A stretch of 64,000 nucleotides of DNA from an uncultured Gammaproteobacteria bacterium (GCA_964463925.1 CAYXDV010000002.1:86729-150728), one strand, 5' to 3'; positions 390 through 55,719 are shown, counted from the first letter of the stretch. Notes: a model not told the origin generated them from the sequence alone. Program-made: numbers and translations.

Positions 390-394
390 AAAGG

Positions 395-893: not shown

Positions 894-895
894 TT

Positions 896-1511: not shown

Positions 1512-1528
1512 TTCTTCTTCTTGCCAAT

Positions 1529-1537: not shown

Positions 1538-1560
1538 GTCATCTAAATTAAATTCACTCT

Positions 1561-2904: not shown

Positions 2905-3149
2905 CAATCCAGTAAGTTTGCCAAGCTTTTTCCACACTTAATCCACCAGTATTTCTGCACACTTAATCCACCAAATATTACCCAAAGTCTAGCCATCACT
3001 ATAAGCTATTTTCGGTCTTTTTATCAATATTTATAGTCAAATAACACTTATCCAGTTTACTTTTTTTGATCTTTCAATCTAATAATGCTTATTCCACACC
3101 AGAGCCATCTCCCTAATACTAATTACTTTTAATTAAGATAAAATTAGAT
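2905..3149. other. candidate oriC: dnaA-dnaN spacer carrying DnaA-box-like motifs, a 16-bp direct repeat and an AT-rich unwinding stretch
   Basis: TTTTCCACA at 2928..2936. CACACTTAATCCACCA occurs twice as a direct repeat (2933..2948 and 2958..2973). TTATCCAGT is at 3048..3056 and TTATTCCACA at 3089..3098. AT-rich CTAATACTAATTACTTTTAATTAAGATAAAATTAGAT sits just 5' of the dnaN start. Confidence 0.6.
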
Positions 3150-5670: not shown

Positions 5671-8343
5671 CTAAAAACTAACCCCGCAGGCAGCAAAGCC
5701 GATACAGCCAAAAATACGGGAAAATAAAGAACCAATAATTGGCAAAAACGATAAAATACTACCCATTGAGTCAAGCTGGTAATGCAAATGAGGGCCAGTA
5801 GAATTTCCAGTCGATCCCTCAAGTCCTAACACAGCCCCTCTACTAATTTGGCCAAATACCAAAGGATAGCTCAACATGTGTCCATATAAGGTAGTAAAAT
5901 CTATCTTTTGCTTTGTGTCAGGATTTTCACACTGACCTTCCACAACTACATAATTTCCAAAGATAGGGCTGTACCCAGCTTTTTTTACCAAACCATCGTG
6001 AGTGGCATAAATCGGTGTTCCCGCTATATTTGCCAAATCAACTGCCTGAGCTCCACTATGTGAACTTGTAGTCATTGGACCCTGAGTCATATAAGCGTGA
6101 TCAAGTGGCCAGCCAGAAGGGCACGAAGATGGTATTACTCCTCCAGGATATTTTCTGGCGTCAAACATAACAAAACTGGTTGCCGGTTTTGGTGGAACCA
6201 AAGAGGATATATTTATTGCAATAAACATTTGGTAAACAAACAACCCAATGAATACAGCAACGATAACTGGCATCAAAAAAGCTAAACTAATTCCAGTTAT
6301 CGCAGCCCCAAGTACAACCACAATATCTTCTGCAATTCCAGCCATAAAACCAGGAACTTTTCCAAAATTTTCTTCCACAAATTTTTTCAATCCTATATGT
6401 ATTCCCAAATCAGCCAACAGTCCTTTTATTTTTCCAGAAACTAATCCCAAAACATCTTTAGCAATCAAAACCAAACTAACTATTGTTCCAGCCCCAGGAA
6501 TTGCTACATTAATTCCCAATCTAGTAGCTATCCAAGAGGCAGCCTTGGTCACAACTCCCCCAGACAATTTGCCCAAAGCTACCTGAGTTCCTTTTACCAA
6601 CCCATCAGCTCCCAGCTGACTTATAACTTGTTTTATTAATTGCTCACCGCCCAGTGCTTCTAAAACTTTTTTGCTTATTCCCGAAACAGACAGATTACTC
6701 AGCTGTTCTATTTTTCCCAGCTTGCTAAGCATTTCCGCTTTACCTAATCGTTGTCTTATCTGTTCAAGCATTGCCTTCCCTTTTTCTCCACTAGTAGCCC
6801 TAATTGCATTATCCAAAGCGCCAATTCTATCTCCTAAGCCTCTAATTCCGTATCTAGACAGTATTCGCATATCCTTGTTAAATCTTTCTGAAAGCACATC
6901 CACTTTCTCTTGTGGCATTGCAGCTAATCCAATCAAACTTTCTACACCCAACAAAGCTTGCTTAGTCTCCAGATTTTTTTCCAAACCGAGCTGAATTCTT
7001 GATAACTCCATTATTCTTGCCATAGGACTTTCATGTACTCTTCTTGTTGTTTCAGAAACACTAGCAGCCGCCTCCCAGATTTGCTTTTGAACTTCCGGCT
7101 TTTTTGTCAAAAATTCAGGACTTCTTTTCATAAAAACTAACTCTCGCTTCATTTGTTCTTCCAAAAACCCAGATTGTCTTACTAAAACCAAAGTCTGGTT
7201 TTCAACAATTACTTTTTCTGCAGCTACTACCACTTTTTTGGCCAACATTGGAGCAGATTCTGTTCCGACAATTGTTGCAATCTTTGAAGTTAGCTCTTCA
7301 TTAGTTGTCGAAGAGAGTATTGTTTCTTCCAAAACTTTTGCTAACTGTCTCTGTTGTTTTTCCTCCTTCAAATCAGCTAATCCTTTTGCAGTCTGCAAAA
7401 CTATATTGCCCAGAGATTCTTTGGCAATATAGTTGTTTATCTTCTGTTGCAATTCCTGCAAAACAACTGAACTGGCCTGACTCAGCTTAAGTTCTTCTTG
7501 TCTGGCTACAACCGACATTGCACTTACCAAATCTTGTTCGCTCACCAATCGATTTTCACTTTCTTTTTTTACATAATCTAATATTTTTTGTGCCCCAGTC
7601 TCTGGAATTTTCAAATGCGAAGCTATTTCGACTTCCATTAGAAGTTGATCTTTTGCCGCTTCCCTAATGTCTATTTCTCCAGCAGCTTTTTCAGTTTTTT
7701 TTATTTCAGCAGCAGTTTTTTCTTGCCGTTCCAGCCAAAATCTAACCACTTTTTTGGCTTGATCTGGGTCTAGCCCGCCAACAAATCTGGCAACCAAAGC
7801 TTCCGCCTCCTCCTTATTTTTGCCTTGATCTAAATATTGTTGATATTCCTCCAAAAGTACGGCTAAATCTTGTGAATTAAGTGATCTTGGGTCAAATTCC
7901 CTGGGATTGCTACGTGTTTGGCCAACATTTATCTGGTCTAATTTAGCTTTAAACGAAAACAATAAAGGAATATAAGGGCCAATCTCGTCACTTTCTTTCA
8001 CATAAACATTGACTCCTGGATAATAAATTGGATATACATCTTTAAAAAAGTTACTTACACTTCCGTACAAACCACTTTGCTCCAAAGTCACTGCCCCCTT
8101 GCTACTCGCTTCTTGCAACTTTCCACCTAATTCAATTGCATACTCCGTTAACTTAGGATTATCTACATGGGTAATAGAGGTACTCCCGGCAATCTGTGCC
8201 ATCTTGCCAAACAACCCAACTTTCTTGTCTCCAATTACTTCTGCTTTTGGACCAAACAAACCCTCCACCAAACTTTTAGGTCGTTTTTTTTCATTACCAT
8301 CGATTTCAACGAGGTCCACCCTTATTTTTGTATTATCTGTCAT
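5671..8343 (-). CDS. large T4SS-associated cell-wall hydrolase with a C-terminal M23/LytM peptidase domain (VirB1/PrgK-like role)
   Basis: 890 aa. A long helical N-terminal region, then a TM cluster (GFMAGIAEDIVVVLGAAITGISLAFLMPVIVAVFIGLFVY), then an M23 signature (HDGLVKKAG...GSTGNSTGPHLHYQLD). It is adjacent to the VirB4-like ATPase. Confidence 0.7.
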   Translation of the reverse strand: MTDNTKIRVDLVEIDGNEKKRPKSLVEGLFGPKAEVIGDKKVGLFGKMAQIAGSTSITHVDNPKLTEYAIELGGKLQEASSKGAVTLEQSGLYGSVSNFFKDVYPIYYPGVNVYVKESDEIGPYIPLLFSFKAKLDQINVGQTRSNPREFDPRSLNSQDLAVLLEEYQQYLDQGKNKEEAEALVARFVGGLDPDQAKKVVRFWLERQEKTAAEIKKTEKAAGEIDIREAAKDQLLMEVEIASHLKIPETGAQKILDYVKKESENRLVSEQDLVSAMSVVARQEELKLSQASSVVLQELQQKINNYIAKESLGNIVLQTAKGLADLKEEKQQRQLAKVLEETILSSTTNEELTSKIATIVGTESAPMLAKKVVVAAEKVIVENQTLVLVRQSGFLEEQMKRELVFMKRSPEFLTKKPEVQKQIWEAAASVSETTRRVHESPMARIMELSRIQLGLEKNLETKQALLGVESLIGLAAMPQEKVDVLSERFNKDMRILSRYGIRGLGDRIGALDNAIRATSGEKGKAMLEQIRQRLGKAEMLSKLGKIEQLSNLSVSGISKKVLEALGGEQLIKQVISQLGADGLVKGTQVALGKLSGGVVTKAASWIATRLGINVAIPGAGTIVSLVLIAKDVLGLVSGKIKGLLADLGIHIGLKKFVEENFGKVPGFMAGIAEDIVVVLGAAITGISLAFLMPVIVAVFIGLFVYQMFIAINISSLVPPKPATSFVMFDARKYPGGVIPSSCPSGWPLDHAYMTQGPMTTSSHSGAQAVDLANIAGTPIYATHDGLVKKAGYSPIFGNYVVVEGQCENPDTKQKIDFTTLYGHMLSYPLVFGQISRGAVLGLEGSTGNSTGPHLHYQLDSMGSILSFLPIIGSLFSRIFGCIGFAACGVSF

Positions 8344-8351
8344 TGCCTAAA

Positions 8352-10736
8352 TTATACCGTGCTTCCAAACAAATCCTCATAGCTTAATTTTGGCTTTTCT
8401 TCCGGTTTCTTTGCTTCTTCTTTTTTTACAACTATTGTTTCATTTTTAATCGGTGCTTTAGGTAGTGGTGGTAATGGCGGCAGGGGAGGTAGTGGTGGTA
8501 ACTTTTTTGGTGTTGCTAAGCTTGGTTTTGCTTTAAACAAATCTTGGTATTTTGGCAAGCTGCCAAGCATTCTTTTCCTTTCCTCCTCTTCTTTCAATCT
8601 TTCTTTTTCCTTTTCCTCTTCTTCCTCTTTTTGTTTTTGATTATGAATTTCTATCTCAGCACTTGCCTTTTGTTCTAAATTTGCAATTTTATCCGCCAAA
8701 TCCTGATGAACAGTCGGTTTTTTAGTTTCTTCTACCTCTACTTTTTCTAGCACTCTAGCAGTTTCAGGCTCCTTTTTTAATGCAACTGTCGCTATTTCAA
8801 CCGCTGGTGCCACTATTTCTTTTATCATCGGCAGTTCAACCTTCTTGGTTTCTTCATTTCCAGCTTCATTTGTTTTTTGTTCCAAAACTTCATTCATCAA
8901 TTTCAAATTGGCCTTTTGCATTGCAATTTTTTGCTTCATTTTTAGCACTTCTTCTGGATTAGAAGTTATCAAAGCATGTTCTTCTGGACTGGCAATTACC
9001 CGTAAAGCCACATGATTTGAACCAGCAAAAAATATTCCTTGTCCTTTGTCAGCCGACAAAAGTAATTGTTTTTCTCCCTCAGATAAATAGAATGTTTCGC
9101 CAACTTGGTCAATCGCAGCACTATGTTGTTTTAACAATATTTGAATAGAACTATTTGTCACAATATCTCTACCATAAGGGGCATTCAAAAAATCCCCCAC
9201 ATCTTGAGTGATTGTTGTTACAGCCAAATAATATTTTCGACCCCGTTTTACCACACCTCTTAAAAAGGCCGCAGAATCTGGATATTGCATCATATACCAA
9301 GCCTCATCCACCACCAAAATTCGTTTCTTCAAAGTCTTTTTAACTGTCGTCCATATATAGTCCAAAATAATATGCATGGCCACTGGCCTAAGGCTCTCTT
9401 CTAAGTTTCGAATCCCAAAAACAACAAAATTACTCTTAAGGTTTACTGTTGTTTTTTGGTTAAAAATTCCAGCAAAAGATCCTTTTATATATTTCTCAAA
9501 TCTGGCAGTCAAAATCTTTGCCTTTTCATCTTCCATCCCAAGTAATGATTTGTATAAATCTTCGATCAAAGGAGCCTCTCGTTTTTGAGTTTCCGGATCA
9601 GGAGTTATACCTTTCATTTTATAAGCATCAACAATTGCTCTGTCTAAAATTGATTCTTCTAATGGATCCAAATCACCAATCATTACCTTAAACAACTTAT
9701 GCAAACCTAAAATTTTATCGTTTAGGGCGTTTTCTCCCTCATCTTGAACCAATGACAAATCAAATGGGTTTATTTTACTTTCTTCACCATAACCAAAAGC
9801 CACATATTGACCCCCCACAGACTCACACATCTCCCGATATTCATTTTCAGGATCAATTACTATTACATCAGTGTCAAACATTAAGCTTCGCATAGCCTCA
9901 AGTTTAACCAAATATGATTTTCCAGAACCAGCTGATGCAAAGACCACTGAATTGTAATTTGGCATTGAAAATCGATCAAAAATTACCAAGCTCCCGTTAT
10001 GTTCATTAATCCCATACATAATTCCCTTATCGTCAGATAAATCTGAAGACACAAAAGGAAAAGTTGTTGCTAGACTAGTTGTATCCATATTTCGGGTAAT
10101 TCCGAGACTATCCTTACAAATTGGCAAGGTTGTTGTAAAGCCACCTTCCATTTCCAAAGTAGCTTTTTTTGTTGTGATCATCAAAGCTCCTAATCCGCTC
10201 TCAAGATTTTTTGTTATTTTGTTAAGTTCATCCCTATCTTTGGCCGAAATTGTTATATACAGTCCAAATTGAAAAAATCTTTCTTCACCTTTGACCAAAT
10301 CAGTTTGCAAAGTTAGTGCATCTTCCAATTTTGCTTGAGTTGCCGGGTTTACTATTTTCCCTCTCTGAATATCAGTTGTCAGTTCAGCCTCCATTTCAGC
10401 AATCTTTCGCCTCAAGTCATCTAATATTTCTTTGCCATCTGTGGGATAAATATACATAGAAATTGATAAGCTGGCGTCAAAATTGATCAAACCAGACAAC
10501 CAATTCATTCCTACGAATCTAGGATAACCAGAGACAAAAAGGGTTCGATAATAACGACCATCAATTCGGATAAAATCCCAATCAACTTCAATAGCCCCCG
10601 GAGCAATCACATCTTTAATCGACACCAATCCCTCTACAAAAGGTTTGGCCCCATTCGCCACCGTTTCTGCTTTTGCAGATTCAACTTCAGTAGTTTTCTG
10701 CTTATCTTTCTTAAGTAGGGCAAGTATACTTTTCAT
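8352..10736 (-). CDS. VirB4/TrbE/PrgJ-family type IV secretion ATPase with a C-terminal acidic coiled-coil and proline-repeat extension
   Basis: 794 aa. VirB4 N-domain (YYRTLFVSGYPRFVGMNWLSGLI), Walker A (VVFASAGSGKSY) and Walker B (ILVVDEAWYMM). The C-terminal ~190 aa are atypical: EEEEEKEKERLKEEEERK followed by LPPLPPLPPLPPLPK. Confidence 0.8.
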   Translation of the reverse strand: MKSILALLKKDKQKTTEVESAKAETVANGAKPFVEGLVSIKDVIAPGAIEVDWDFIRIDGRYYRTLFVSGYPRFVGMNWLSGLINFDASLSISMYIYPTDGKEILDDLRRKIAEMEAELTTDIQRGKIVNPATQAKLEDALTLQTDLVKGEERFFQFGLYITISAKDRDELNKITKNLESGLGALMITTKKATLEMEGGFTTTLPICKDSLGITRNMDTTSLATTFPFVSSDLSDDKGIMYGINEHNGSLVIFDRFSMPNYNSVVFASAGSGKSYLVKLEAMRSLMFDTDVIVIDPENEYREMCESVGGQYVAFGYGEESKINPFDLSLVQDEGENALNDKILGLHKLFKVMIGDLDPLEESILDRAIVDAYKMKGITPDPETQKREAPLIEDLYKSLLGMEDEKAKILTARFEKYIKGSFAGIFNQKTTVNLKSNFVVFGIRNLEESLRPVAMHIILDYIWTTVKKTLKKRILVVDEAWYMMQYPDSAAFLRGVVKRGRKYYLAVTTITQDVGDFLNAPYGRDIVTNSSIQILLKQHSAAIDQVGETFYLSEGEKQLLLSADKGQGIFFAGSNHVALRVIASPEEHALITSNPEEVLKMKQKIAMQKANLKLMNEVLEQKTNEAGNEETKKVELPMIKEIVAPAVEIATVALKKEPETARVLEKVEVEETKKPTVHQDLADKIANLEQKASAEIEIHNQKQKEEEEEKEKERLKEEEERKRMLGSLPKYQDLFKAKPSLATPKKLPPLPPLPPLPPLPKAPIKNETIVVKKEEAKKPEEKPKLSYEDLFGSTV
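8461..8502 (-). repeat. imperfect 9-bp tandem repeat (~4.5 units) encoding the (PPL)n tract of the VirB4-like protein
   Basis: ggtagtggt ggtaatggc ggcagggga ggtagtggt ggtaac on the top strand. It is in-frame within the CDS. Confidence 0.7.
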
Positions 10737-10737
10737 A

Positions 10738-11421
10738 TTATTTTAAATTCGATTGAACAAGGGGAGAGGTAAAATCGCCTGCTAACTTCTGGGTGGTAAA
10801 ACTATCCTCATTATAAATCTTAAACAACAAAGCAACCAGCTCTCTTGTGCTCAGTGGTCGGACTTCTAACCCTAACCTAGAAAACAATCGCACTATTTGA
10901 TCTTTTTTGGGCTCTAGCGATAGCTTCGCTTTTTCCAATATATATTCTTTGCTATATGGCAGAGAAGTTTTTTTACCCGTTATCCCACTGCTTCCACCTT
11001 TAATCCCCAGCTCAAAAGCTGAAAAGGGGACGATTACATAAAAAGATTTTGACAACACATCATTTTTTCTAACCAAATCTTCCACAAACATTCGATATGA
11101 TTTGATTCTTTCTCTCAATAGCGAGTTTAGTTGTTTTTCCTCTGCTGTTTTTAGATTTGTCACATAATTTGTAATATCTTTAGTGCTAGTATGTATAACT
11201 ATTTGAACCGGAAAATTAAATGAATTTAAAATTCCACCATAAGCAAATACCAAAGATTGCTGTTCTCTTTCAGACAATAAATCAAAATTTACAGATGACA
11301 ATTGTAAAACCATGGCACAGGATCCATCTTTTAGTAAAACAATATTATTTACTACGTCTTCAACAGGCAAATGTTCCTGAGTAGTTCCTTTTATGGCAAT
11401 TTTGTGTGGGTCTAAGGGCAT
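10738..11421 (-). CDS. hypothetical protein in the T4SS-like operon
   Basis: 227-aa ORF with no obvious TM. It is tightly packed, 2 nt from the VirB4-like gene. I recognise no motif. Confidence 0.55.
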   Translation of the reverse strand: MPLDPHKIAIKGTTQEHLPVEDVVNNIVLLKDGSCAMVLQLSSVNFDLLSEREQQSLVFAYGGILNSFNFPVQIVIHTSTKDITNYVTNLKTAEEKQLNSLLRERIKSYRMFVEDLVRKNDVLSKSFYVIVPFSAFELGIKGGSSGITGKKTSLPYSKEYILEKAKLSLEPKKDQIVRLFSRLGLEVRPLSTRELVALLFKIYNEDSFTTQKLAGDFTSPLVQSNLK

Positions 11422-11446
11422 TAGTTAATCTTATCTCCTTCTTACT

Positions 11447-12385
11447 TTATTTTAAAGCTTGTATTCTAATTGGTTCCAATATAGCTCCAGTCATATTAAC
11501 TGCAACCGTATCAAATTTCATTCCGTCCTTTTCAGTAATTATCATATGTCGCCCGTTTGCCAGTGGGGTTGTTGTTTTAAACTGACCAAGTGAATTTGTT
11601 TGCAAAACTCTTTCCGATCCTCCCAAATCATTCTGAATCTCAACTATGGCTTCTGATATTATCTTGCCCCCTATGTCGATCACCATCCCAACCAATATAT
11701 TTGGTTCGGTTGGTTTACTTGGCATTGGAATGTCTCCGAAATTTGCCAACCCAGTCGCTTGTATTTTGCTGGTTTTCAAATTCAAATCCGTACTATTTTT
11801 CTCAACCTGCTTCAATTCTTCAACTACAACAATAGCTTCTGGTTGCGGCTTTTTTTCTTCAACTATATTGATGCTTTCAGCTACCGTAGGTTTGGGTGCT
11901 TCAGTTTTTGTAGAAGCAGTAATTTCTTCAGTATCATCATCGTCAAAATAAATCTTTCCAGCCTTACTGCTGGGGATCGATTTAATAAACTCGTCTACTT
12001 TGGATATCTCCTTTTTTGGTCTAGATTCCTCTTCTTCAGCCTCAAGATTTAATTTCTTGCTAAAGTCTACCTCTAACCAGTTGGGGTCAACTTTTTTCTT
12101 CCATGTAAATATTGTCGGGGCGTACAAACTACGCACAAAGGCAATGACCCATTTTTCTAAAGGTCGATCTTGAAAAGGAATAAATGCGGTCGCAAGGCCC
12201 CCTAAAGCCAGTATTGCCATTAGTGGCCATTTTATAAAGAAAACCAGGGGAGTTGCGTTTACCATGACCGCCAAAATGATTCCTCCGGCTGCTTTTCCAA
12301 ACTGCTTAATTGTCATGTCTCCCACCAGCTTAAATTCGTAGCTAGTTATTTGTTGTGGTATGGGATGTTGTTCGACTCCGGGCAT
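11447..12385 (-). CDS. membrane protein with a VirB3/PrgI-like N-terminus and a C-terminal beta-rich extension
   Basis: 312 aa. The N-terminus (YEFKLVGDMTIKQFGKAAGGIILAVMVNATPLVFFIKWPLMAILALGGLATAFIPF) is a two-TM hairpin typical of VirB3-like proteins. It is the first gene of the minus-strand operon. Confidence 0.5.
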   Translation of the reverse strand: MPGVEQHPIPQQITSYEFKLVGDMTIKQFGKAAGGIILAVMVNATPLVFFIKWPLMAILALGGLATAFIPFQDRPLEKWVIAFVRSLYAPTIFTWKKKVDPNWLEVDFSKKLNLEAEEEESRPKKEISKVDEFIKSIPSSKAGKIYFDDDDTEEITASTKTEAPKPTVAESINIVEEKKPQPEAIVVVEELKQVEKNSTDLNLKTSKIQATGLANFGDIPMPSKPTEPNILVGMVIDIGGKIISEAIVEIQNDLGGSERVLQTNSLGQFKTTTPLANGRHMIITEKDGMKFDTVAVNMTGAILEPIRIQALK

Positions 12386-12406
12386 TAAGTTATTGTACAG
12401 AAAAAC

Positions 12407-13273
12407 CTAATATGTGTTGAGGGCTACCCCAATCCTCATCTTTACAAATTCGTTCCAAACCACATCAATTCCTGCCTCGTTTTTAAACCAACCCTCTAAA
12501 GTAAAATTACCGCTAGAAGAAATTGCCGATACTGCATAAATCTCTATAGAGTTAGGTACATACTTCCAAATCATTCCAATTGTTCTTCTCATACAAAACC
12601 AACTGGTTACCGCAACTATCTTTTTGTGCTTTATTCCAGTCCTTTGGATCAGATCCACAGAACGGCGTACATTATCTGCCACAGAAATTGAGTCTTCTTC
12701 TAGCACGATGGCTGATTCAGGAACACCGGCTTGTTTTGCAAACTCAGCATAAGCTTCAGCTTCACTAATCGCGGATTCTTCTTTTTGCCATACAGGCCCT
12801 TTTCCACTAAAAATAAGTTTTGAAACTTTGCCAGCTTTGTATAAATCAGCCGCCAAATTGGGTCTAGTGGGATTAGTTTTATTGCCTCCAAAGACTATCG
12901 CAACATCTGCCTTATCAAACGTGTCAGACATATTCAGGTATTCTGTAACTTGTTGTAACGCCGACGTATCTTTTGTTTTAAGGGTCTTTTGTACTACCAA
13001 ATCACGCAATCTTATTCCCTCAGTCAAAACGATGTCCGCTTCTTCAAAATCAATAGCTTTCGGATTGTAAGGTTTACGCATACGATTGCTTAAATCATAT
13101 AAATTTGTTTCTATGCCCAACGATCCTAACCATCTTTTAACGCTTGAAAAATCCGGATAATGAACCAATTTCTTGTCGGGATGCGGTTGTGACCTGAACT
13201 CTAGAGCGCAAGTTTCATGCAATTCTTTTACCGCTGGCAGTTCTTGGTTGCTTATTCTGGTACTTATGCCCAT
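12407..13273 (-). CDS. DUF218 (YdcF/SanA-like) domain protein
   Basis: DUF218-like motifs: VAIVFGG, KLIFSGKGPVWQ and EEDSISVADN. The ORF track extends it to a TTG at 13294. An in-frame ATG at 13273 (MGISTR) is the more likely start. Confidence 0.6.
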   Translation of the reverse strand: MGISTRISNQELPAVKELHETCALEFRSQPHPDKKLVHYPDFSSVKRWLGSLGIETNLYDLSNRMRKPYNPKAIDFEEADIVLTEGIRLRDLVVQKTLKTKDTSALQQVTEYLNMSDTFDKADVAIVFGGNKTNPTRPNLAADLYKAGKVSKLIFSGKGPVWQKEESAISEAEAYAEFAKQAGVPESAIVLEEDSISVADNVRRSVDLIQRTGIKHKKIVAVTSWFCMRRTIGMIWKYVPNSIEIYAVSAISSSGNFTLEGWFKNEAGIDVVWNEFVKMRIGVALNTY

Positions 13274-29672: not shown

Positions 29673-29755
29673 AGGAAGGGTCGGATAGTGGTTTATTCCA
29701 CACGCTTGGAAAGCGTGCACCGCAAGGTATCGTGGGTTCGAATCCCACCCCTTCC
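29673..29755 (+). tRNA. tRNA-Ser (anticodon GGA), class II with a long variable arm
   Basis: Acceptor GGAAGGG/CCCTTCC, anticodon stem CACGC/GCGTG with loop TTGGAAA, long variable arm, T-arm GTGGG-TTCGAAT-CCCAC, discriminator G. No CCA. Confidence 0.85.
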
Positions 29756-29796
29756 GCACTTCGTGTAATGTTCGAGTAATTTGGTAGAATTGATTT

Positions 29797-30834
29797 ATGA
29801 ATTTTGTGAAATTACCTAAACTCAAAAGAGGTAATAAAGTTGCTATTTTATCTCCATCTTTTGCGGCTCCAGGTAAATGGCCTTTGGTTTATGAATTGGG
29901 ATGTCAAAGATTGAGAGATATTTTTGGGTTGGAACCGATTGAATTTTCAACTACCAAAAAAATTGGAGCTAGCGGTGAAGAAAGGAGTAGGGATTTGATT
30001 GATGCTTTTGAAAATAAAGAAATTAAAGCTGTAATTGCTTCACTTGGTGGAGATGATCAAATAACTTATATTAAAAACCTTCCTCAAAGACCTTTTGTCG
30101 AAAATCCAAAACCATTTTTTGGTTATAGTGATAACACTCATTTTATTAACCATCTTTGGTTGTGTGGTATCCCTTCCTTTTATGGTGGACATTTATTTAC
30201 TGAATTTGCCATGCAAAAAGAAATGGATGAATTTACTATCAAATATTTAAAACACGCTTTATTTGATAACGGCAGTTTTGAGTTAGAGTCAAGTCCTATT
30301 TTTAACGATATTGGTTTGAATTGGAATGATGAATCAACTCTAAATCAAAAACGAAGATATCAATCAAATGACGGTTGGCATTGGGATGGATTAAAAAATA
30401 CCCAAGGCATTACTTGGGGTGGTTGTCTTGAATCAGTCGATGAATTACTTAGACACGGAATTACAATTCCAACTCTTGATGAGTTTAAAAATATTATTTT
30501 ATTTTTAGAAACTTCAGAAGAAATTCCCAGCCATGATTATTTTCGTCGAGTTTTGAGAGCTTTGGGCGAAAAGGGAATCTTAAGAAACATCAAAGGACTT
30601 TTGGTTGGTCGACCGAAAGCTTGGGAGTTTAATAAACAAAATTCTGACGAAGAAAAAGAAATTTACAAAAAAGGGCAAAGAGAAATGGTATTAGAAATTG
30701 TCAGAAAATATAATCAAGAAATCCCAATCATTCAAAATTTGGATTTCGGTCATACTGCACCACAAATTTGTTTACCGACTGGTAAAAAAGTAGTTATTGA
30801 CTCTAATAGCAAATTAGTAGAAGCAGAATTCTAG
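29797..30834 (+). CDS. LD-carboxypeptidase (peptidase S66 family)
   Basis: Ser nucleophile motif FFGYSDNTHF, and KVAILSPS at the N-terminus. Confidence 0.8.
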   Translation: MNFVKLPKLKRGNKVAILSPSFAAPGKWPLVYELGCQRLRDIFGLEPIEFSTTKKIGASGEERSRDLIDAFENKEIKAVIASLGGDDQITYIKNLPQRPFVENPKPFFGYSDNTHFINHLWLCGIPSFYGGHLFTEFAMQKEMDEFTIKYLKHALFDNGSFELESSPIFNDIGLNWNDESTLNQKRRYQSNDGWHWDGLKNTQGITWGGCLESVDELLRHGITIPTLDEFKNIILFLETSEEIPSHDYFRRVLRALGEKGILRNIKGLLVGRPKAWEFNKQNSDEEKEIYKKGQREMVLEIVRKYNQEIPIIQNLDFGHTAPQICLPTGKKVVIDSNSKLVEAEF

Positions 30835-30840
30835 TTATAA

Positions 30841-30880
30841 GGATAGAAAGGTTCCAAACTCATATGCTCCGCCAATGTCG
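30841..30880. repeat. degenerate copy of the 37-bp intergenic repeat
   Basis: AGAAAGGTTCCAAACTCATATGCTCCGCCAATG compared with AAAATAGGTTCTAACAGCGTCAATGATTCGCCGCCAA. They share AGGTTCyAA...TCCGCCAA. Confidence 0.5.
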
Positions 30881-30897
30881 TGACAATTAAATATTGT

Positions 30898-31279
30898 CTA
30901 TTGTTTCAGCCGTTTTCCTGACCATAGGTGAAAGTGAATTTGACCAATTTTTTGACGTTCACCACCATTCACTAGAATGGTGTAACCGCTGTTGTTCCAC
31001 CCTAATTCTTTAACAATTTCTTTGGCTACTAGATAAACTTCGCTGATAAAGACACTGTCTTCTTGCGATAAAGTGGTTATAGATTTAATAGCTTTTTTAG
31101 GAACTAAGACAATATGCTTTTCCCAAAAAAGGTTTGGGGTGCCAAAAAGCGATAATTTTGTCGGTTTCTTTAATTCTGGTGACAGGCAATAATTGACTAA
31201 ATTTTCCAAAAGCTAAACCGACAATTAAATCTCCAAGCGGTGATTTAGCTAATTCAAAAACTTTTTTCGAAATGCTCAT
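30898..31279 (-). pseudogene. HIT-family hydrolase disrupted by a 1-nt frameshift in a T6/A6 homopolymer
   Basis: The N-terminal frame (31279..31097) reads ...TDKIIAFWHPKPF. The C-terminal frame (31209..30898) reads ...LFWEKHIVLVPKK...GYTILVNGGERQKIGQIHFHLWSGKRL, a HIT triad region. Removing one base from the A6 run at 31125..31130 yields the continuous ...IIAFWHPKPFWEKHIVLVPKK..., matching AF.DI.P.AP.HILViPK. Confidence 0.7.
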
Positions 31280-31304
31280 TAAGTAAATTATAGTTCATAG
31301 CTAT

Positions 31305-31341
31305 AAAATAGGTTCTAACAGCGTCAATGATTCGCCGCCAA
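31305..31341. repeat. 37-bp intergenic direct repeat, copy 1 (AAAATAGGTTCTAACAGCGTCAATGATTCGCCGCCAA)
   Basis: Identical 37-mer to 32106..32142. It lies 43 nt upstream of the epimerase start. Confidence 0.85.
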
Positions 31342-31383
31342 GATATGATTACCCTATTCTACTGATGTTTTTTGTTGTTATAA

Positions 31384-32091
31384 TTGATTATGAAGATGTT
31401 TGTAACTGGTTCGAGTGGATTTATTGGATCTGAATTAATTAAAAAAATATTACATGAAAATGAAATTGTGACTTTTGATTTGAAAAATAGTCAAAATATT
31501 CTTGATTTTGAAAGGTTAAAAGAATCTATGAAAGGTTGTAAAGTAGTAATTCATTTAGCGGCTTTAAGAAAACCTTATGAAGATAAAACTTTTGAAGATT
31601 ACTTCAGAACTAATGTGGAGGGAACTTTTAATGTAGCTCAAGCTTGTCTAGAAAATGGAGTCAAAAAGATGATTTATTCTAGTTCAACATCGTATTATGG
31701 AGTAGAAGAAGGTATCCCTTTTCAAAAACCAATTAAAGAAAATAATTTGACCGTGGCTCAAAATGTTAAAGAAAATGAATTAAAATGTAGAGATTGTGAC
31801 ATGGCTTATTCGACGAGTAAAGTCATAGCTGAACAGGTCTTAGCGAATTATGGCTTAAGGAAAAAGTTTCAAGTGATTATTTTAAGATTGGGACCAACAA
31901 GGGAAACAGGAGAATATCGTCCTTTTGGCGAATTAAAACTTCATTTGAAGATAGAAAATGCAATTCAGTCAATCGAAAAATCAATAAATAATAAAAGGGA
32001 GATATGGTATGAGGCTTTTACTATTACTGATAAAGTTGATGAAGTTGATATTTCAAAAGCCGAAAGATTACTAGGTTACAAACCAGAGTAG
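31384..32091 (+). CDS. NAD-dependent epimerase/dehydratase family protein (short SDR)
   Basis: Rossmann motif VTGSSGFIGSEL and catalytic YSTSK. Confidence 0.75.
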   Translation: MIMKMFVTGSSGFIGSELIKKILHENEIVTFDLKNSQNILDFERLKESMKGCKVVIHLAALRKPYEDKTFEDYFRTNVEGTFNVAQACLENGVKKMIYSSSTSYYGVEEGIPFQKPIKENNLTVAQNVKENELKCRDCDMAYSTSKVIAEQVLANYGLRKKFQVIILRLGPTRETGEYRPFGELKLHLKIENAIQSIEKSINNKREIWYEAFTITDKVDEVDISKAERLLGYKPE

Positions 32092-32105
32092 GTATTTGTT
32101 TTCAC

Positions 32106-32142
32106 AAAATAGGTTCTAACAGCGTCAATGATTCGCCGCCAA
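32106..32142. repeat. 37-bp intergenic direct repeat, copy 2
   Basis: Identical to copy 1. It lies 28 nt upstream of the DMT transporter start. Confidence 0.85.
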
Positions 32143-32169
32143 TTTTAAAAAATAAGATATACTCTGCTC

Positions 32170-33017
32170 ATGACTTGGTATACATACGCGTTGATTCCGA
32201 TGGTTTTGTATACCGTGTTTAATATCCTCACAAGAGTGGTTTTAAAAGATACAGAAGACACCAAATCATTCGCAGTTTTATTCTATGGCTTGACAGCCAT
32301 ATTTAACTTATGTATCGGATTCTTTGAATCAATCAAAATTGGAAACATCACCCCGCTTATTGCCATTTTGACTGCAATAGTATTCGTGAATTGGGGCGTG
32401 TTTGGTTTTTTGGAAACAAATGCAAAAAAACATACTGAAATTTCGACTTTTATGGTCTTGGTAAAAACTGGAACCGTGTTGTCGTTTATTCTTTCAGTGA
32501 TTTTCCTAAAAGAGTTAGTTACGGTTCGAAAGATTATAGCTTTAGTATTGATGGTGGGGACAATGGTGGTACTTATATTTAGAATTTATGGAATAAAATT
32601 AAAAGTGGACAAAGGCTTTGTCTATTCGGCGCTATTGGGAATAATTTTGGGAATAGGTTGGACAATTGATAAGATTGTGGCGGTGGCTTGGGGAGCAGTA
32701 TTGTACTCCGCGATCTCAAGCTTTAGCTCTTGTGCTTTTGCCATAGCAGTACCTCCAGTAAAAGTTGGTGCCTTAAAAAACAGTTTAAACTAATAACTTC
32801 GACGTTTATATTTCTGGTGCTAATCAATGCCGTGGCATATTATTTTTTTATGAAAGCCATGACAATAGGGGAAGTTTCGAGAGTAGTCTTGGTGGTGACT
32901 TTGAATGAGATATTAACGATAATTGCGGGAATATTTTTTCTTGGAGAAAAATCGCATTGGGTAGAAAAAATTGTCGCAGGGGTAGTAATAGTATCGGCTT
33001 CGTTTTTATTGTTATAA
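32170..33017 (+). pseudogene. DMT/EamA-family transporter split by a 1-nt frameshift in an A6 homopolymer
   Basis: Two overlapping ORFs (32170..32793 and 32730..33017). The second carries the EamA C-terminal helices (VAYYFFMKAMTIGEVSRVVLVVTLNEILTIIAGIFFLGEK). Adding one A to the run at 32775..32780 fuses them as ...VGALKKQFKLITSTFIFLVLINAVAYY.... Confidence 0.6.
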
Positions 33018-33072
33018 CGACAGAAAGGTTCTAATCCCTTATCCTTAAGGGGATGCGAATATATAATTTGTT

Positions 33073-33459
33073 ATGAAAACAATTCTCGTTGATGCAGCTG
33101 GAACTTTTGTAATTGAGGGTGAAGGGATTTATCAACCACTATATGAATTGCTGAAAAGATATCCGAATAAGAAGATTATCCTGACGAATGCCAGTGATGA
33201 CCAAATAATTGAATTTGGTTTAACAAATCTACCTTATCCACTTTTTACTCTTAAACACAATCCTGACAAGACTGACCCCAAGTATTTCAAGAAAATGTTG
33301 ATCAAATTTAATCTAAAATCTAAAGACGTAATATATTTCGAGCACAATTTGGATGCAGTAAAAAGTGCTGAATCGGTTGGAATTAAATCATTCTTCTACG
33401 ATGCTGAGAAAAAGGATCAGATGGCTTTAAAAGAATTTCTAGATACAAACCTAAATTAA
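33073..33459 (+). CDS. HAD-like hydrolase (degenerate motif I)
   Basis: 128 aa with ILVDAAGT at the N-terminus and a HAD motif III-like YFEHNLDAVKSAESVGI. The second Asp of DxD is replaced. Confidence 0.5.
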   Translation: MKTILVDAAGTFVIEGEGIYQPLYELLKRYPNKKIILTNASDDQIIEFGLTNLPYPLFTLKHNPDKTDPKYFKKMLIKFNLKSKDVIYFEHNLDAVKSAESVGIKSFFYDAEKKDQMALKEFLDTNLN

Positions 33460-33669
33460 GTTGAGACTTTTTCAATTTGTTTATCATTTAGAATGAATCT
33501 GATCTCGAGTAATGCCAATATTTCTTACTTTTCTTCTATCGAGTTTTCTCTGATAAATGGACAGTCAACAACCTCCATTAAATATTCAAATCAAATAGAC
33601 AGGAAAGACGTGGCACATTCTACTAGTTTCTAATCCTGAATGTTAATATATGGTACACAAATTATATAT

Positions 33670-34362
33670 ATGAAAATCAAAATCTTATCTTGGAATATCT
33701 GGATAGATGGCTTTCTAGAAAAATGGGAAACATATCTACGATCTGCTGACGCAGATGTTATTGGTTTGCAAGAAGTCAAAAACAGTGACCCAAATCGAGA
33801 CATTATCGGAATGCTAACAAAACTTGGATATAACTACACATTTGCAGAAACCGAGCAAGTCTGGAATGGAAAAACATATCGGCATGGGCCAGCAATCTTC
33901 ACTAAGTTTCCTATTATAAAATCCGAGAAAATTCAACTCGAAATTGGAGAAGGAGAACGGGCAGCTGCCTATGCAAAATTAGATATTGGGGGAACTCCAC
34001 TCCATGTTTATAATACTCACTTGATTCATACGCACCAACAAGAATCCACCCAGCAAGAACAGCAAACCAATAATTTAATAGCCAAATTGCCAGATAATCA
34101 TGTGGTCGTGATGGGGGATTTCAACGCCACATCCAAAAGTAAATCCATCCAAGCAATGAATAAAATACTTGTAGATACAGACCCTTCAGCCCTTCCTACA
34201 TGGAGTGTGTATCCAGAAGGATGTATCAAATGTAATCCACAAAGAGTCGACACAAAACTAGACTATATTTTCATAAGCAAGGACTTAAAGAAACATTCCT
34301 TTGAAGTTGGGAAATCTGATGGCTCTGACCATCTACCCATTTTGGCCGTTATAGAAACGTAG
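33670..34362 (+). CDS. endonuclease/exonuclease/phosphatase (EEP) family protein
   Basis: Start MKIKILSWNIW. Motifs GLQEV, GDFNA and a C-terminal SDHLPILAVIE. Confidence 0.8.
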   Translation: MKIKILSWNIWIDGFLEKWETYLRSADADVIGLQEVKNSDPNRDIIGMLTKLGYNYTFAETEQVWNGKTYRHGPAIFTKFPIIKSEKIQLEIGEGERAAAYAKLDIGGTPLHVYNTHLIHTHQQESTQQEQQTNNLIAKLPDNHVVVMGDFNATSKSKSIQAMNKILVDTDPSALPTWSVYPEGCIKCNPQRVDTKLDYIFISKDLKKHSFEVGKSDGSDHLPILAVIET

Positions 34363-34416
34363 ACTCTAGATATCTTCAGATCATTTCACCTTATTCGAAT
34401 CCCATTATAATCAATT

Positions 34417-35124
34417 ATGTCCTTCAATTCGGTCACTAGCCTAAAGGCTGACCCTTACTTTCTAAAAGATGATTTCCAATCAAAGCCTAGTACCAAGATT
34501 TGGGGACTAAAACGTCAACCACTAATGATCAATAGTCACTCGTTGTCACAAGGTAAAAATATTGGCAGCCAGGAACCTAGAAATTGTCTGAAAGTAACTT
34601 GTTGTCCTGGAGATATTACCATAGTAGGGCAGAGTGGACGTATTACTGAACGAGCAGAACTGGTGGAAAACAAGGAATTGTGGTTACTACACGGAGTTAA
34701 TATTTGGTACACTTTTTCTTTATTGATACCCAAAGATTATCAACAGAATTCAAATCGTTTAGTTTTTGCCCAATGGAAACAATTTGGCAATACCCATTCC
34801 CCATTTTTATCTCTCCGTTACATAAGTAGAAGTTTTGAATCAAAATTGAGCAACTCAAATGAACAGATAAAAACCAATTTTGGCCAATTAGCAACAGACA
34901 TTTGGCACACTTTTCTAATTAATTACCAATTGAACAATAACGAAACAGGACAGTTTTCTATTTGGTTAGACAAAAGGCTAGTTCAAACCTACACAGGTCG
35001 CTTAGGTTTCAAACCAAATGGTGATTTTATCCATTTTCATTTAGGCATATATCGGGACCATCTTCCTTTTGCACAGACTCTTTATTTCTCCAACTTCCTT
35101 CGCTCTTCCTATGATTTACAATAA
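34417..35124 (+). CDS. hypothetical protein, possibly a PL7-like (alginate-lyase fold) jelly-roll protein
   Basis: Weak resemblance to PL7 motifs (RITERAELVE, AQWKQ, IHFHLGIYRDH). Low confidence. Confidence 0.45.
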   Translation: MSFNSVTSLKADPYFLKDDFQSKPSTKIWGLKRQPLMINSHSLSQGKNIGSQEPRNCLKVTCCPGDITIVGQSGRITERAELVENKELWLLHGVNIWYTFSLLIPKDYQQNSNRLVFAQWKQFGNTHSPFLSLRYISRSFESKLSNSNEQIKTNFGQLATDIWHTFLINYQLNNNETGQFSIWLDKRLVQTYTGRLGFKPNGDFIHFHLGIYRDHLPFAQTLYFSNFLRSSYDLQ

Positions 35125-35472: not shown

Positions 35473-36354
35473 CTAAAGTATTCTCGCGCCTCTGAATTGC
35501 CAATCATGGTAAATTTCTCCATTTGGAAAAAAAATTATCTGCCTTGCCTTTGTCGGGTCTGGGCTGTGGGTAAGGGCATTGGTCAAACATACATTTTGTC
35601 CAGCTACGTCATAGATAATTGATCCATGCCCACCTTCAAGCACAGGGACACCATTTAGGTCCAAATATCTTTTTACCTCTCTAATTTGCATATCATTTAG
35701 AAAATGTTCCTCTGTCCACCGTCCTATTTCAGTGTTTTCGCTAGTCCCTGGCTTTGCAACTCTTCGCAAAGTCAATTGGGCTACCCCCAACTGTCTGGTC
35801 CAATCTATCATTTCTCCTACTTTTTCAAAACTATCCACCCCGCCATTAAACATAGTTACCGAAAAACGAGTAGAGAAGCCAATTCGGTGCAAGTCCTCTA
35901 TTACTGCAGGCAAATTTATATATTCTTTGTCCCTGGGGGTATATACTCCACGATTCAAATCCGACCTATGGCCTACTACAGAAACTGCTACAAACCCCAA
36001 GCCCAAGTCGTACCATTTCTTTAAATATTCTTTATATTCATTTGGCTTTTTCTCAAACATTATGGCATTAGTTTGCAAATCAATTAAAGGAAATTGGTGT
36101 GGTTTCAAGTGTTCCAAATATTCTGTAATTTGATTTGGAAATAATGTCGGTTCACCTTTTCCAGTGATTACCACGCTACCAACCCTTAAATCTCGCGCCA
36201 TCCTTGCAGCAATTTCAAAATTTCTCCAATTGATTGGTTGTGGTTTCATACCCAAATGTTCAATCCCTGTCATCTTTGATACGCAAAATGGACAACTGGC
36301 GTTACAGGCAGCCGTACCACAAACAATACTAAAATTCTCAGCTTTCTCTATCAT
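35473..36354 (-). CDS. radical SAM protein (paralog of 57257..58009)
   Basis: N-terminal cluster CNASCPFC (CxxxCxxC) and SAM motif ITGKGEPTLFP. It shares CNA[SK]C[PF]FCV[ST]K[ML]T and ITG.G.P.L.P with the second radical SAM ORF. Confidence 0.8.
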   Translation of the reverse strand: MIEKAENFSIVCGTAACNASCPFCVSKMTGIEHLGMKPQPINWRNFEIAARMARDLRVGSVVITGKGEPTLFPNQITEYLEHLKPHQFPLIDLQTNAIMFEKKPNEYKEYLKKWYDLGLGFVAVSVVGHRSDLNRGVYTPRDKEYINLPAVIEDLHRIGFSTRFSVTMFNGGVDSFEKVGEMIDWTRQLGVAQLTLRRVAKPGTSENTEIGRWTEEHFLNDMQIREVKRYLDLNGVPVLEGGHGSIIYDVAGQNVCLTNALTHSPDPTKARQIIFFPNGEIYHDWQFRGARIL

Positions 36355-37291
36355 TTTTTTCCTCCTCTAAAAAATAAGGGGTCAAACAAAATCTATAAGT
36401 ATCTCCACGGGCATATTTAGTTAAATCCATCTCACCATCACCTATCTCTATCTTCTCCTTTGGCATATTTGCCAGTAAAACAACTTCACTCGGTTTTGCT
36501 TTCAATCCAAAATTGCGATTAAGTCTAGAAACCGCCTTCTGTTGCTTTTGTCGATATTTTTGTACTAAATCCAGGCTATTAACATTGGCCAAAACCCGAC
36601 TCGCTACCATTATCGAATAAACATTTTTAAACCATTTGTTTACTTCCAAAGTTGGCAGGGGATAACGGGCAAATATGGCCCCTATTCGCAGGTAGTACAG
36701 GCCAAAGGGCTTGCTCATGGAAGCTACTACAGCTTCAATTGCCGGATGATTTACATTAACTTTTAATTCATCAGTTAGCCCTATGTAAGTGGCATCGTAA
36801 AAAATCCTGTGCCCAGAATTCAGAATATTTTTCCAGTCTGACTCGTTAAAGCTGTTACCATCTTTTGCCTTTGGATTAGATACAAACAAAATTCCTGGTA
36901 ATTGTTGTCCGAGGTCTTTAGTCGACTCAACCGTTATACAATTTATTCCTAAATTCTTAGCATACCCTGCATAGCCTTCGTATTCACCATTCAAAGTATA
37001 CAGTTTTACCGCAGAATTTATAGATTTTTCTCTAGCCAATAAATGGAAAATTGCTTCCGATGCTCCACCAGTTATATATGACTCGGGATATTTATCTAGT
37101 CCTGCCAGCTGTTTTGCCAAATATCGACGATACTCATCCAAAAAGGGTTTATGAAAGTCATCTAATCCAGGGTCAACCGATCTTAATAAAACGCGGTTTA
37201 GTTCTGTTGGTTTTACAGATTCAATAACCTCTCTTACTTCCGGAAACAAATAGCTATAAACTGGCTTTAATGGCTGTATTTTCTCTCTCAT
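36338..37291 (-). CDS. PLP-dependent class I/II aminotransferase-fold protein (short)
   Basis: GGASEAIFHLL, YDATYIG and the PLP-lysine motif SMSKPFGLYYLRIG. The start overlaps the stop of the radical SAM gene. Confidence 0.55.
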   Translation of the reverse strand: MREKIQPLKPVYSYLFPEVREVIESVKPTELNRVLLRSVDPGLDDFHKPFLDEYRRYLAKQLAGLDKYPESYITGGASEAIFHLLAREKSINSAVKLYTLNGEYEGYAGYAKNLGINCITVESTKDLGQQLPGILFVSNPKAKDGNSFNESDWKNILNSGHRIFYDATYIGLTDELKVNVNHPAIEAVVASMSKPFGLYYLRIGAIFARYPLPTLEVNKWFKNVYSIMVASRVLANVNSLDLVQKYRQKQQKAVSRLNRNFGLKAKPSEVVLLANMPKEKIEIGDGEMDLTKYARGDTYRFCLTPYFLEEEKNDRES

Positions 37292-37349
37292 AAAGAAAGT
37301 GTAATATGGACACTATCTAAAGTCAAGAGATATTAACGCTACACAAAAA

Positions 37350-38012
37350 TCAGGCGAAATATTGAATACTTCTTTTTACAAAACGGTACATTCTTGCAGG
37401 TCTAAAAGCACCTTCTTTTATCTTATCTACCTTTTCTACCAAGCCCAACTGCAACATTTTTTTTCTAAAATTTCTTTTATCAAGTGGTCTACCCCAAATA
37501 ATTTCATAAATATGTTGCAATTCGGTCAAAGTAAATTCTGTGGGTAGTAGGGCATAGGCCACATTGGAGTAAGCTATTTTATCTTGTAACCTAGCTGTTG
37601 CCGTTTTTATAATTTTTTCATGGTCAAAAGCCATTTTTGGTAATTTATTGACGTCAAACCAAGCCATATCTTGGTAATAATCTGGCTTCCTTATTTCTAA
37701 CTTTTCAGCCATATTTAGTAATAAAAAATAAGCCACAGAGATTGCTCTACTTCGCAAATCACGGTTCAGTTCTCCAAAAGTATATAGCTGTTCCAAATGT
37801 TTAATTTTAAGATTGGTCTTTTGTTCCATTACTCTTTCTGCCGCTAAATCCAAGGTTTCCCCGGATTGAACCAAACCACCGGGAACTGCCCATTTTTTAG
37901 CGTACATACCTTCTTTAATTTGCAGCAAGAGAACTTTTAATCTGTCATCCAAAATACTTAAAACCACAGTATCAACAGCAACCTTTGGTGACAACAAATT
38001 TGTTTTTGTCAT
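37350..38012 (-). CDS. NUDIX hydrolase with a C-terminal extension
   Basis: Nudix box VPGGLVQSGETLDLAAERVMEQKTNL, plus ~90 extra C-terminal residues. Confidence 0.75.
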   Translation of the reverse strand: MTKTNLLSPKVAVDTVVLSILDDRLKVLLLQIKEGMYAKKWAVPGGLVQSGETLDLAAERVMEQKTNLKIKHLEQLYTFGELNRDLRSRAISVAYFLLLNMAEKLEIRKPDYYQDMAWFDVNKLPKMAFDHEKIIKTATARLQDKIAYSNVAYALLPTEFTLTELQHIYEIIWGRPLDKRNFRKKMLQLGLVEKVDKIKEGAFRPARMYRFVKRSIQYFA

Positions 38013-55075: not shown

Positions 55076-55163
55076 GGAGGGTTGGCCCAGTGGTTTAAGG
55101 CACTGGTTTCGAAAACCAGCGGGAGCAATTCCATCGCAGGTTCGAATCCTGCACCCTCCGCCA
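55076..55163 (+). tRNA. tRNA-Ser (anticodon CGA), class II, CCA encoded
   Basis: Acceptor GGAGGGT/ACCCTCC, anticodon stem CTGGT/ACCAG with loop TTCGAAA, long variable arm, T-arm GCAGG-TTCGAAT-CCTGC, discriminator G, and CCA. Confidence 0.85.
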
Positions 55164-55170
55164 TGAAAAT

Positions 55171-55626
55171 ATGACAGAGATTGTTCAACTCGAAAGATCA
55201 CAAAAACTAAGCGAAGACCTCATTAACTATGTAGAAGCAAAATGGCCAGAGGTTGTGAACGTGGTCGTGCCAGTTATCAAAGAGAGCCAAAGAGTTACTT
55301 CTGGACTACCATTTGTTTTTGTATTATTAAAAAATAAAAAAATTATTGGCTTTTACCAGATAATTAAACAAGAAATAGTTCTCAGAAAAGATATTTCGCC
55401 TTGGATATCACCAATATTTGTTGATGAACAAGAAAGAGGAAATTCTTATGGTAAATTAATGCTTAACCATGCCAGGAAGGTAATTGGAGATCTTGGATAT
55501 CAAACAGTTTATCTAGCTACTGATCATATTGGGTATTATGAAAAATACGGATTTCGAGAAATTGGACTAAGCAACTTTGAATGGGGAAGACCAACTAAAA
55601 TTTATAAGGCTGATGCGATTAAATAA
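55171..55626 (+). CDS. GNAT-family N-acetyltransferase
   Basis: 151 aa with the acetyl-CoA motif region (VDEQERGNSYGKLMLNHARKV) and YLATDHIGYYEKYGF. Confidence 0.65.
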   Translation: MTEIVQLERSQKLSEDLINYVEAKWPEVVNVVVPVIKESQRVTSGLPFVFVLLKNKKIIGFYQIIKQEIVLRKDISPWISPIFVDEQERGNSYGKLMLNHARKVIGDLGYQTVYLATDHIGYYEKYGFREIGLSNFEWGRPTKIYKADAIK

Positions 55627-55632
55627 TTATTG

Positions 55633-55665
55633 GGACAGAAAGGTTTCAGACCCATCCGCTCTGCC
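55633..55665. repeat. short relative of the AGAAAGGTTC intergenic motif
   Basis: GACAGAAAGGTTTCAGACCC...GCCAAAC. It shares GACAGAAAGGTT with 33011..33025 and AGGTTC...GCCAA with the 37-bp repeats. It sits ~55 nt upstream of the 55720 gene. Confidence 0.35.
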
Positions 55666-55719
55666 AAACTTCTCATATTTGCCTTTTTACACTTCGTCTG
55701 TAAAACTAGCAAATAGTTT

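Follow-up and report, generated by a model that had tools for sequence, protein, structure and literature searches.

We analysed a 64,000-nucleotide stretch of DNA (GCA_964463925.1, CAYXDV010000002.1:86729-150728), referred to here as the window, in which a gene for tRNA-Ser(GGA) is followed by a block of small genes with short repeated elements at several of the gene junctions. The tRNA-Ser(GGA) gene (29674..29757, plus strand; ARAGORN, with an Rfam score of 54 bits) is the proximal anchor of this variable array. The first segment behind it carries an S66 LD-carboxypeptidase gene (29797..30834, plus strand; Pfam), with a GC content at third codon positions (GC3) of 21% (z = -2.4) and no counterpart at this place in the related contig L003. 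The second is a HIT-family gene in reverse orientation (30898..31279, minus strand), frameshifted and split into overlapping frames (30898-31209 and 31097-31279), the C-terminal one of which matches Pfam HIT. A short SDR epimerase-like gene (31384..32091, plus strand; Pfam; GC3 21%, z = -2.4) forms the third segment and lies between the elements termed E2 and E3 below. The fourth is an EamA/DMT transporter gene (32170..33017, plus strand), also frameshifted, with Pfam EamA matches on both pieces (32170-32793 and 32730-33017), and the fifth encodes a 128-residue, weakly HAD-like protein (33073..33459, plus strand; Pfam HAD_2, sub-threshold at E = 0.014). An EEP nuclease/phosphatase gene of native composition (33640..34362, plus strand; Pfam) and, as distal member, a PF14099 polysaccharide-lyase-like (PL7-like) gene (34417..35124, plus strand; Pfam) complete the block, and a minus-strand gene array starts at 35169. 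An earlier, sequence-only reading had described the tRNA, seven small unrelated genes of which two are broken, and the minus-strand array; ARAGORN, Rfam, Pfam and the sequence itself agree with that description, with the HAD-like assignment being sub-threshold only.

Both frameshifts, as read from the sequence, involve one nucleotide within a run of six A residues, at 31125-31130 (plus strand) for the HIT gene and at 32775-32780 for the DMT gene. Because both single-base shifts sit in six-base homopolymers, they could be true decay or sequencing error, which are indistinguishable here.

The same reading had noted a shared intergenic element, and this was borne out. The 11-mer AWAGGTTCYAA occurs four times in the 64 kb, always on the plus strand and always at a gene junction inside the block, against 0.3 expected copies; none of 100 shuffled sequences reached four. 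The copies fall into two families, of about 41 nt (family A) and 36-37 nt (family B). Family A is represented in the block by E1 (GTTATAAGGATAGAAAGGTTCCAAACTCATATGCTCCGCCA; 30834..30874, plus strand; nhmmer leave-one-out E = 5e-8) and by the more diverged E4 (33011..33054, plus strand; leave-one-out E = 2e-3), which overlaps the DMT stop codon. These two are 78% identical over 40 nt and have GTTATAAsGAyAGAAAGGTTCyAA in common. E1 is succeeded by the trailer TGTCGTGACA (30876-30885, plus strand) and then by a hairpin (30882-30898). Family B comprises E2 (AAAATAGGTTCTAACAGCGTCAATGATTCGCCGCCAA; 31305..31341, plus strand) and E3 (32106..32142, plus strand), which are identical and bracket the SDR gene as a perfect 37-bp direct repeat. 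A contig of the same sample from the Logan assembly (L001) ends inside E2 after 31 repeat bases, which is how a genuine repeat should behave in a graph built with k = 31.

Some features of the elements recall the 3' ends of tRNA-Ser genes. Both families carry AGGTTCYAA close to their start. Their last bases, YCCGCCA, correspond to the acceptor end of tRNA-Ser, including the discriminator G and CCA, and the distance from GGTTC to CCA in family A (25 nt) equals that from T loop to CCA in real tRNA-Ser genes. E1 together with its trailer aligns to the 3' end and trailer of a tRNA-Ser(ACU) gene in the related contig L007, about 7 standard deviations above shuffled controls, which makes E1, in part at least, a tRNA-Ser(ACU) 3' end that has been displaced or has decayed. 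The trailer of the tRNA-Ser(ACU) gene in L011 also resembles that of E1. These genes with the unusual anticodon ACU (L007 8865-8955 and L011 11489-11576, both on the minus strand) exist besides a normal tRNA-Ser(GCU); the 64-kb window lacks a tRNA-Ser(ACU) gene and retains just E1, a remnant of such a gene's 3' end with trailer. Two further T-arm-like fragments in the block are tentative. The first, AGTTTCTAATCCTG (33625..33639, plus strand), matches the T arm of tRNA-Ser(CGA) at 12 of 14 positions (shuffling p ~0.003), sits where similarity to the related contig L028 begins, and is not significant against a profile of tRNA-Ser 3' ends. The second, TTCGAATCCCA (34394..34404, plus strand), matches the tRNA-Ser(GGA) T arm at 11 of 11 positions and does no better in the profile test than a chance match in coding sequence.

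The elements are conserved beyond the block, and in leave-one-out HMM searches over 258 kb every member listed here was recovered at E = 2e-3 or better. Family B is known from four genomes with a total of five copies; the gene downstream differs each time (SDR, DMT, 2',5' RNA ligase, NUDIX or UCP014422), and for all five the flanks are unrelated right up to the element edges, as for discrete modules. In L007 an NTPase gene comes immediately after tRNA-Ser(ACU); the copy there matches at 34 of 37 bases, overlaps the NTPase stop codon and lies upstream of the 2',5' RNA ligase gene. In L021, a JGI contig found via the tRNA sequence, the copy lies about 715 nt downstream of tRNA-Ser(GGA) and 7 nt before the NUDIX gene; the sole gene between tRNA and element is reversed (raw coordinates 354-950, plus strand) and has an in-frame stop codon, TAG, making it another broken array gene. 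Family A also has five supported copies, namely E1, E4, one in L023 that matches the first bases of E1 at 23 of 24 positions, one in L006 separated by two genes from tRNA-Ser(GCT), which lies 1.6 kb upstream, and one elsewhere in the window. A sixth candidate (L006 4248-4296) was dropped, as the leave-one-out model misses it. The additional copy in the window closes a second, one-gene array (55076..55671, plus strand; ARAGORN and nhmmer) made up of tRNA-Ser(CGA) (55076-55163), an acetyltransferase-like gene (55171-55626) and the family-A element (55627-55671), which scored E = 2e-4 before it joined the model and 2.6e-4 when left out.

Eight of the ten supported copies can be assessed for their position relative to a tRNA, with the identical E2 and E3 counted once and the L028 copy set aside since its contig ends before any tRNA. 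Seven of these eight lie 0.5-3.3 kb downstream of a tRNA-Ser gene and are co-oriented with it, the anticodon being GGA, CGA, GCT or ACU. No copy was found at a related locus that has no tRNA-Ser (L029), and about 190 kb of other related sequence outside tRNA-Ser-proximal arrays held none except one orphan in L023. The units between anchors measure 465-1118 nt and contain one gene each; in the window, L006, L007 and L021, eight of the eleven units are co-oriented and three reversed.

Small GIY-YIG nuclease genes or fragments occur near elements or tRNA-Ser(GGA) in L023 (7930-8110), L011 (9364-9627) and L029 (13827-14114), all on the minus strand; the one in L023 is truncated and comes after the family-A element and a long hairpin. 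In another relative, L014 (2576-3460), an IS256-family (Transposase_mut) remnant directly adjoins tRNA-Ser(CGA), which is a further sign of foreign DNA collecting on the 3' sides of tRNA-Ser genes in this clade.

The locus varies between relatives. The source names on homologs of the NUDIX protein encoded in the left flank include Shapirobacteria and Woesebacteria, and these names put the host in the Microgenomates group of the Patescibacteria; a genome collection scanned with the same protein gave a distant Chloroflexota as the sole match. The block is flanked on the left by ClpB, NUDIX and tRNA-Ser(GGA) and on the right by Transgly_assoc, radical SAM and an NrtR-type NUDIX regulator. L003, with a NUDIX protein 89% identical to that of the window, has both flanks as here, the right one including the Transgly_assoc, radical SAM, aminotransferase-like and NrtR genes. 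The interval that these flanks enclose holds no more than a UDG-family gene and an 80-residue open reading frame (ORF) that is a C-terminal remnant of the PL7-like protein, and the similarity of L003 to the window ends at the tRNA-Ser(GGA) 3' end. L028, a closer relative whose radical SAM protein shows 85% identity, matches the window collinearly at 84% DNA identity, starting at 33664, and retains the EEP (91% protein identity) and PL7-like (92%) genes at the same position. Upstream of EEP it has a UCP014422-family gene instead of the HAD-like gene, and a family-B element precedes the UCP014422 gene. In L007 the tRNA is inverted and about ten different genes run from its 3' side. The tRNA-Ser(GGA) gene itself is 96-97% identical in L003 and L007, and which genes are present beside the tRNA differs among L003, L028, L007 and L008. 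Gene order is thus not conserved at this locus, which leaves standing the part of the sequence-only reading that saw here a variable, tRNA-anchored locus with repeats at gene boundaries.

What did not hold is the view of the entire 29.7-35.1 kb as one horizontally acquired island. Because EEP and the PL7-like gene are kept at 91-92% identity in L028, and a PL7 remnant persists in L003, these two genes are ancestral and not recent arrivals, which confines the variable part to 29.8-33.6 kb. A search for a direct repeat of the tRNA 3' end at the distal border had also been suggested, and none was found at ~35.1 kb. The composition agrees with an ancestral EEP-PL7 pair and a variable 29.8-33.6 kb. 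The block as a whole has the lowest GC content of any 5.4-kb interval (34.3% vs 37.2%) and a tetranucleotide distance in the top 2%. Only two of its seven genes, however, namely the LD-carboxypeptidase and SDR genes, look foreign, with their GC3 of 21% compared with 31 +/- 4% elsewhere; the remaining genes have native-looking composition.

Turnover is also seen at strain level, where an indel begins at a tRNA-Ser 3' end. L007 and L008, strains of one species, are 96-99.6% identical where they can be aligned. In L007, 1716 nt (7151-8866) separate the tRNA-Ser(ACU) 3' end from the start codon of a PNP_UDP_1 gene and hold the NTPase and RNA ligase genes, the B element and two small ORFs. In L008 these are replaced by 32 unrelated bases (12376-12408), and the difference begins exactly at CTCCGC| of tRNA-Ser(ACU), the bar marking the edge. 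A second indel in the same array removes or adds a single gene for a 198-residue protein (L007 5273-5933 vs L008 11150-11158). Contig ends in independent short-read assemblies fall at comparable places: L005 and L012 end exactly at the tRNA-Ser(GGA) 3' end, and L001, as described above, inside a B element. These three ends are consistent with branch points in the assembly graph that arise from population variation or repeats.

We put the chance at about even that the tRNA-Ser(GGA) 3' end anchors a hotspot of gene capture, with the junction elements acting as recombination sites for an enzyme encoded elsewhere. Single-gene segments of 0.47-1.1 kb would be added, replaced and left to decay beside the tRNA, while the far end with EEP and the PL7-like gene would be old. 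The A and B elements would be att-like sites that join the segments, and the recombinase would be supplied in trans, from elsewhere in the genome or from a mobile element. The newest arrivals would be the low-GC3 LD-carboxypeptidase and SDR genes, the SDR gene having perhaps come as a 'gene + B element' unit inserted into an existing B element, which would produce the perfect 37-bp flanking repeat. The data show directly that the locus varies, that the elements are conserved and placed near tRNA-Ser genes, and that a strain-level indel begins at a tRNA-Ser 3' end. We infer that the elements are recombination sites and that the reaction is site-specific because of the anchor, the single-gene units with a site for each, their differing neighbours, the repeat around the SDR gene and the strain-level edge at a tRNA 3' end.

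A number of results weigh against gene capture at such sites. A search for integrases and other recombinases turned up none, either in the 64-kb window or in the L003, L006, L007, L021 and L028 arrays, in an ORF scan that was partial (Pfam was run on the block and 20 other ORFs, with precomputed Pfam results for the flanks of L001 and L003); the sequence-only reading had recognised no integrase in the window either. The L007/L008 event is a replacement (1716 vs 32 nt) with its distal edge at a start codon and not at an element. An all-against-all comparison of array-encoded proteins revealed no cassette common to two contexts, and several related genomes have a tRNA-Ser(GGA) gene with no element nearby. 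Families A and B fail to detect each other by HMM, and the elements show no dyad symmetry or significant fold. Finally, the idea that they are plain copies of tRNA-Ser 3' ends was rejected, as the profile, which was made from 20 genuine tRNA-Ser 3' ends, picks up each of the tRNAs but not a single element. The resemblance to tRNA ends is for this reason limited to the spacing, the G-CCA ends and one pairwise alignment.

The rival that survives best is homology-anchored exchange, in which incoming DNA from relatives would swap the tRNA-side genes by homologous recombination. The conserved tRNA, the short elements and core genes would act as anchors, and the elements would be kept for another role, for example transcript 3'-end formation or processing. 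Bacteria of this kind carry DNA-uptake machinery. We consider this explanation unlikely overall and, because no recombinase was found, the strain-level event is a replacement and no cassette was seen in two contexts, a serious rival all the same. It would explain a replacement bounded by a tRNA and the start codon of a conserved gene, and the tRNA could offer homology at 96-97% identity between genomes whose coding DNA is only 65-75% identical. The hairpins that follow family-A copies, in the manner of a tRNA 3' end with its terminator, are also in keeping with it. However, 36-41 nt is at the lower limit for efficient homologous recombination, and such exchange leaves unexplained both the 86-96% conservation of elements amid unrelated flanks and their clustering close to tRNA-Ser genes with four different anticodons. 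Insertion is also the better fit for a perfect repeat that surrounds an SDR gene of foreign-looking composition.

We see as still less probable an ordinary, fast-evolving accessory region, in which the elements would have nothing to do with gene movement, being lineage-specific terminators or cis-regulatory motifs or else the decayed remains of a former tRNA-Ser gene cluster, and gene content would differ simply through the distance between the genomes compared. The relatives do share only about 75% DNA identity, each of the five family-B copies has a co-oriented gene downstream, and the clear relation of E1 to the 3' end and trailer of tRNA-Ser(ACU), intact in L007 and L011, makes at least one element a tRNA remnant. 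A regulatory role sits poorly with distances of 7 to 150 nt from element to start codon and with the two family-A copies that lie between convergent genes, and a promoter reading was rejected, as the -35/-10 geometry is inconsistent and promoter-like sites are not enriched. Distance between genomes does not account for variation between the near-identical strains L007 and L008, nor does this explanation account for all five copies in the window being in tRNA-Ser-proximal arrays. Moreover, the family-A copies share derived states, with TTCCAGAC rather than TTCGAATC, unlike what independent decay would give, and they are a family of their own and not independent wrecks of neighbouring tRNAs.

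The block is not an integron. Both a cassette array of the classical integron kind and a set of attC sites without integrase (CALIN) are very improbable, and the cassette array of the sequence-only reading, if taken as integron-type, fails on the features that define one. The likeness lies in short, mostly co-oriented single-gene units of 0.5-1.1 kb, with unrelated functions side by side, a conserved short site following each unit and a fixed anchor. In contrast to integrons, the anchor is a tRNA and not an attI beside intI, three of the eleven units are reversed, no IntI-like gene was found, and the sites are short (36-41 nt), asymmetric and unstructured where attC sites are folded. Folding of all four junctions as DNA on both strands gave only -2.7 to -6.1 kcal/mol (roughly -3 to -6), with z-scores of -1.0 to +1.1; no R''/R' inverted core pairs are visible in the element sequences, and Rfam matched tRNAs only, with nothing else in the block or the elements. 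An assembly artefact, in which the metagenome-assembled genome would contain a false join at the repeat-bracketed SDR segment or around the entire block, is scarcely credible in spite of the Logan break inside the 37-bp repeat and the homopolymer frameshifts, since the independent Logan contig reproduces the tRNA, LD-carboxypeptidase, E1, HIT and the start of E2, the EEP-PL7 part and right flank are collinear with L028 at 84% identity, and the elements recur across unrelated samples and assemblers.

Other identities were considered for the elements and set aside. A miniature inverted-repeat transposable element (MITE) or insertion-sequence remnant was rejected, as no copy has inverted termini or flanking duplications. 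A phage or plasmid origin was rejected, as every match from pattern scans of viral contigs and from BLAST searches against phage and plasmid collections was attributable to chance. A DNA uptake signal sequence would need hundreds of copies genome-wide, compared with five in 64 kb that are all in tRNA-Ser-proximal arrays. For the block itself, a defence island was dismissed, as PADLOC gave one marginal match, of the HIT-family gene (ThsC, E = 9e-4).

Among known systems, tandem islands that target tRNA genes come close to the proposed gene-capture hotspot. Integrases target the asymmetric 3' ends of tRNA genes and switch among tRNAs with a long variable arm (review, PMC8371274); here, too, the tRNAs have a long variable arm and several isoacceptors are used. 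According to references cited in that paper, 'gene capture' after integrase loss is a known outcome. The array shares further traits with such islands: it is anchored at and co-oriented with a tRNA 3' end, its content varies between relatives and between strains, the newer and compositionally odd genes lie nearest the tRNA, and a displaced partial tRNA 3' end with trailer (E1) is present. The 3' part of a tRNA gene appears as insertion point twice, at the similarity edge with L003 and at the L007/L008 edge. The array differs in being built from single genes of 0.5-1.1 kb and not from multi-kb elements, with no integrase or integrase fragment found, and in having junctions that are not plain tRNA 3'-end copies but two families found across genomes, with no distal tRNA repeat. 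Core-gene recombination hotspots have the same conserved flanks, high turnover and pseudogenes among their contents; unlike in these, turnover here is tied to tRNA-Ser genes of four anticodons and punctuated by elements shared between genomes.

Patescibacteria have tiny genomes with few recognisable mobile elements, and little is understood of the way in which accessory genes reach them. A recurrent site at tRNA-Ser genes where single genes are stacked, with conserved short elements between them, would be a concrete route of gene flow. A bolder proposal, which we hold only tentatively and with low confidence, is that Microgenomates Patescibacteria have an integron-like cassette platform of a new kind, in which the tRNA-Ser 3' end would correspond to attI and the short, unstructured A and B elements, with their resemblance to the tRNA-Ser acceptor end, to attC; single-gene cassettes would be inserted, stacked and lost by means of a recombinase encoded away from the array. 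Should the elements prove to be genuine recombination sites, they would define a cassette system separate from integrons; otherwise the locus is still a clear tRNA-linked hotspot of turnover in a reduced genome. As far as our literature searches on arrays in Patescibacteria show, neither such arrays nor element families that recur at tRNA-Ser genes have been described.

The SDR gene belongs to a short family (~232 residues) with 60-72% identity between many Patescibacteria and DPANN archaea, whose source names include Nanoarchaeales, Pacearchaeota and Diapherotrites; this suggests that Patescibacteria and DPANN archaea, both small-genome organisms, may have exchanged the family. The homolog in a distant relative lies among housekeeping genes, and no elements were found in the contexts of SDR homologs in L019/L020 and L026.

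The conserved right flank (radical SAM, aminotransferase-like gene and NrtR-type NUDIX regulator) occupies 35473-38012 of the window. Because its homologs adjoin nadC-nadA-nadB in a more distant relative (L029 5566-10879), it probably belongs to an NAD-related regulon. Far upstream of the block lies a type IV secretion-like cluster (5671-12385) with a VirB4-like ATPase, a PrgI-family protein and a large secreted protein, the end of which resembles an M23 peptidase domain as judged by eye, with no domain scan. The start of the window is the replication-origin region, with rnpA, dnaA and dnaN (570-4268).

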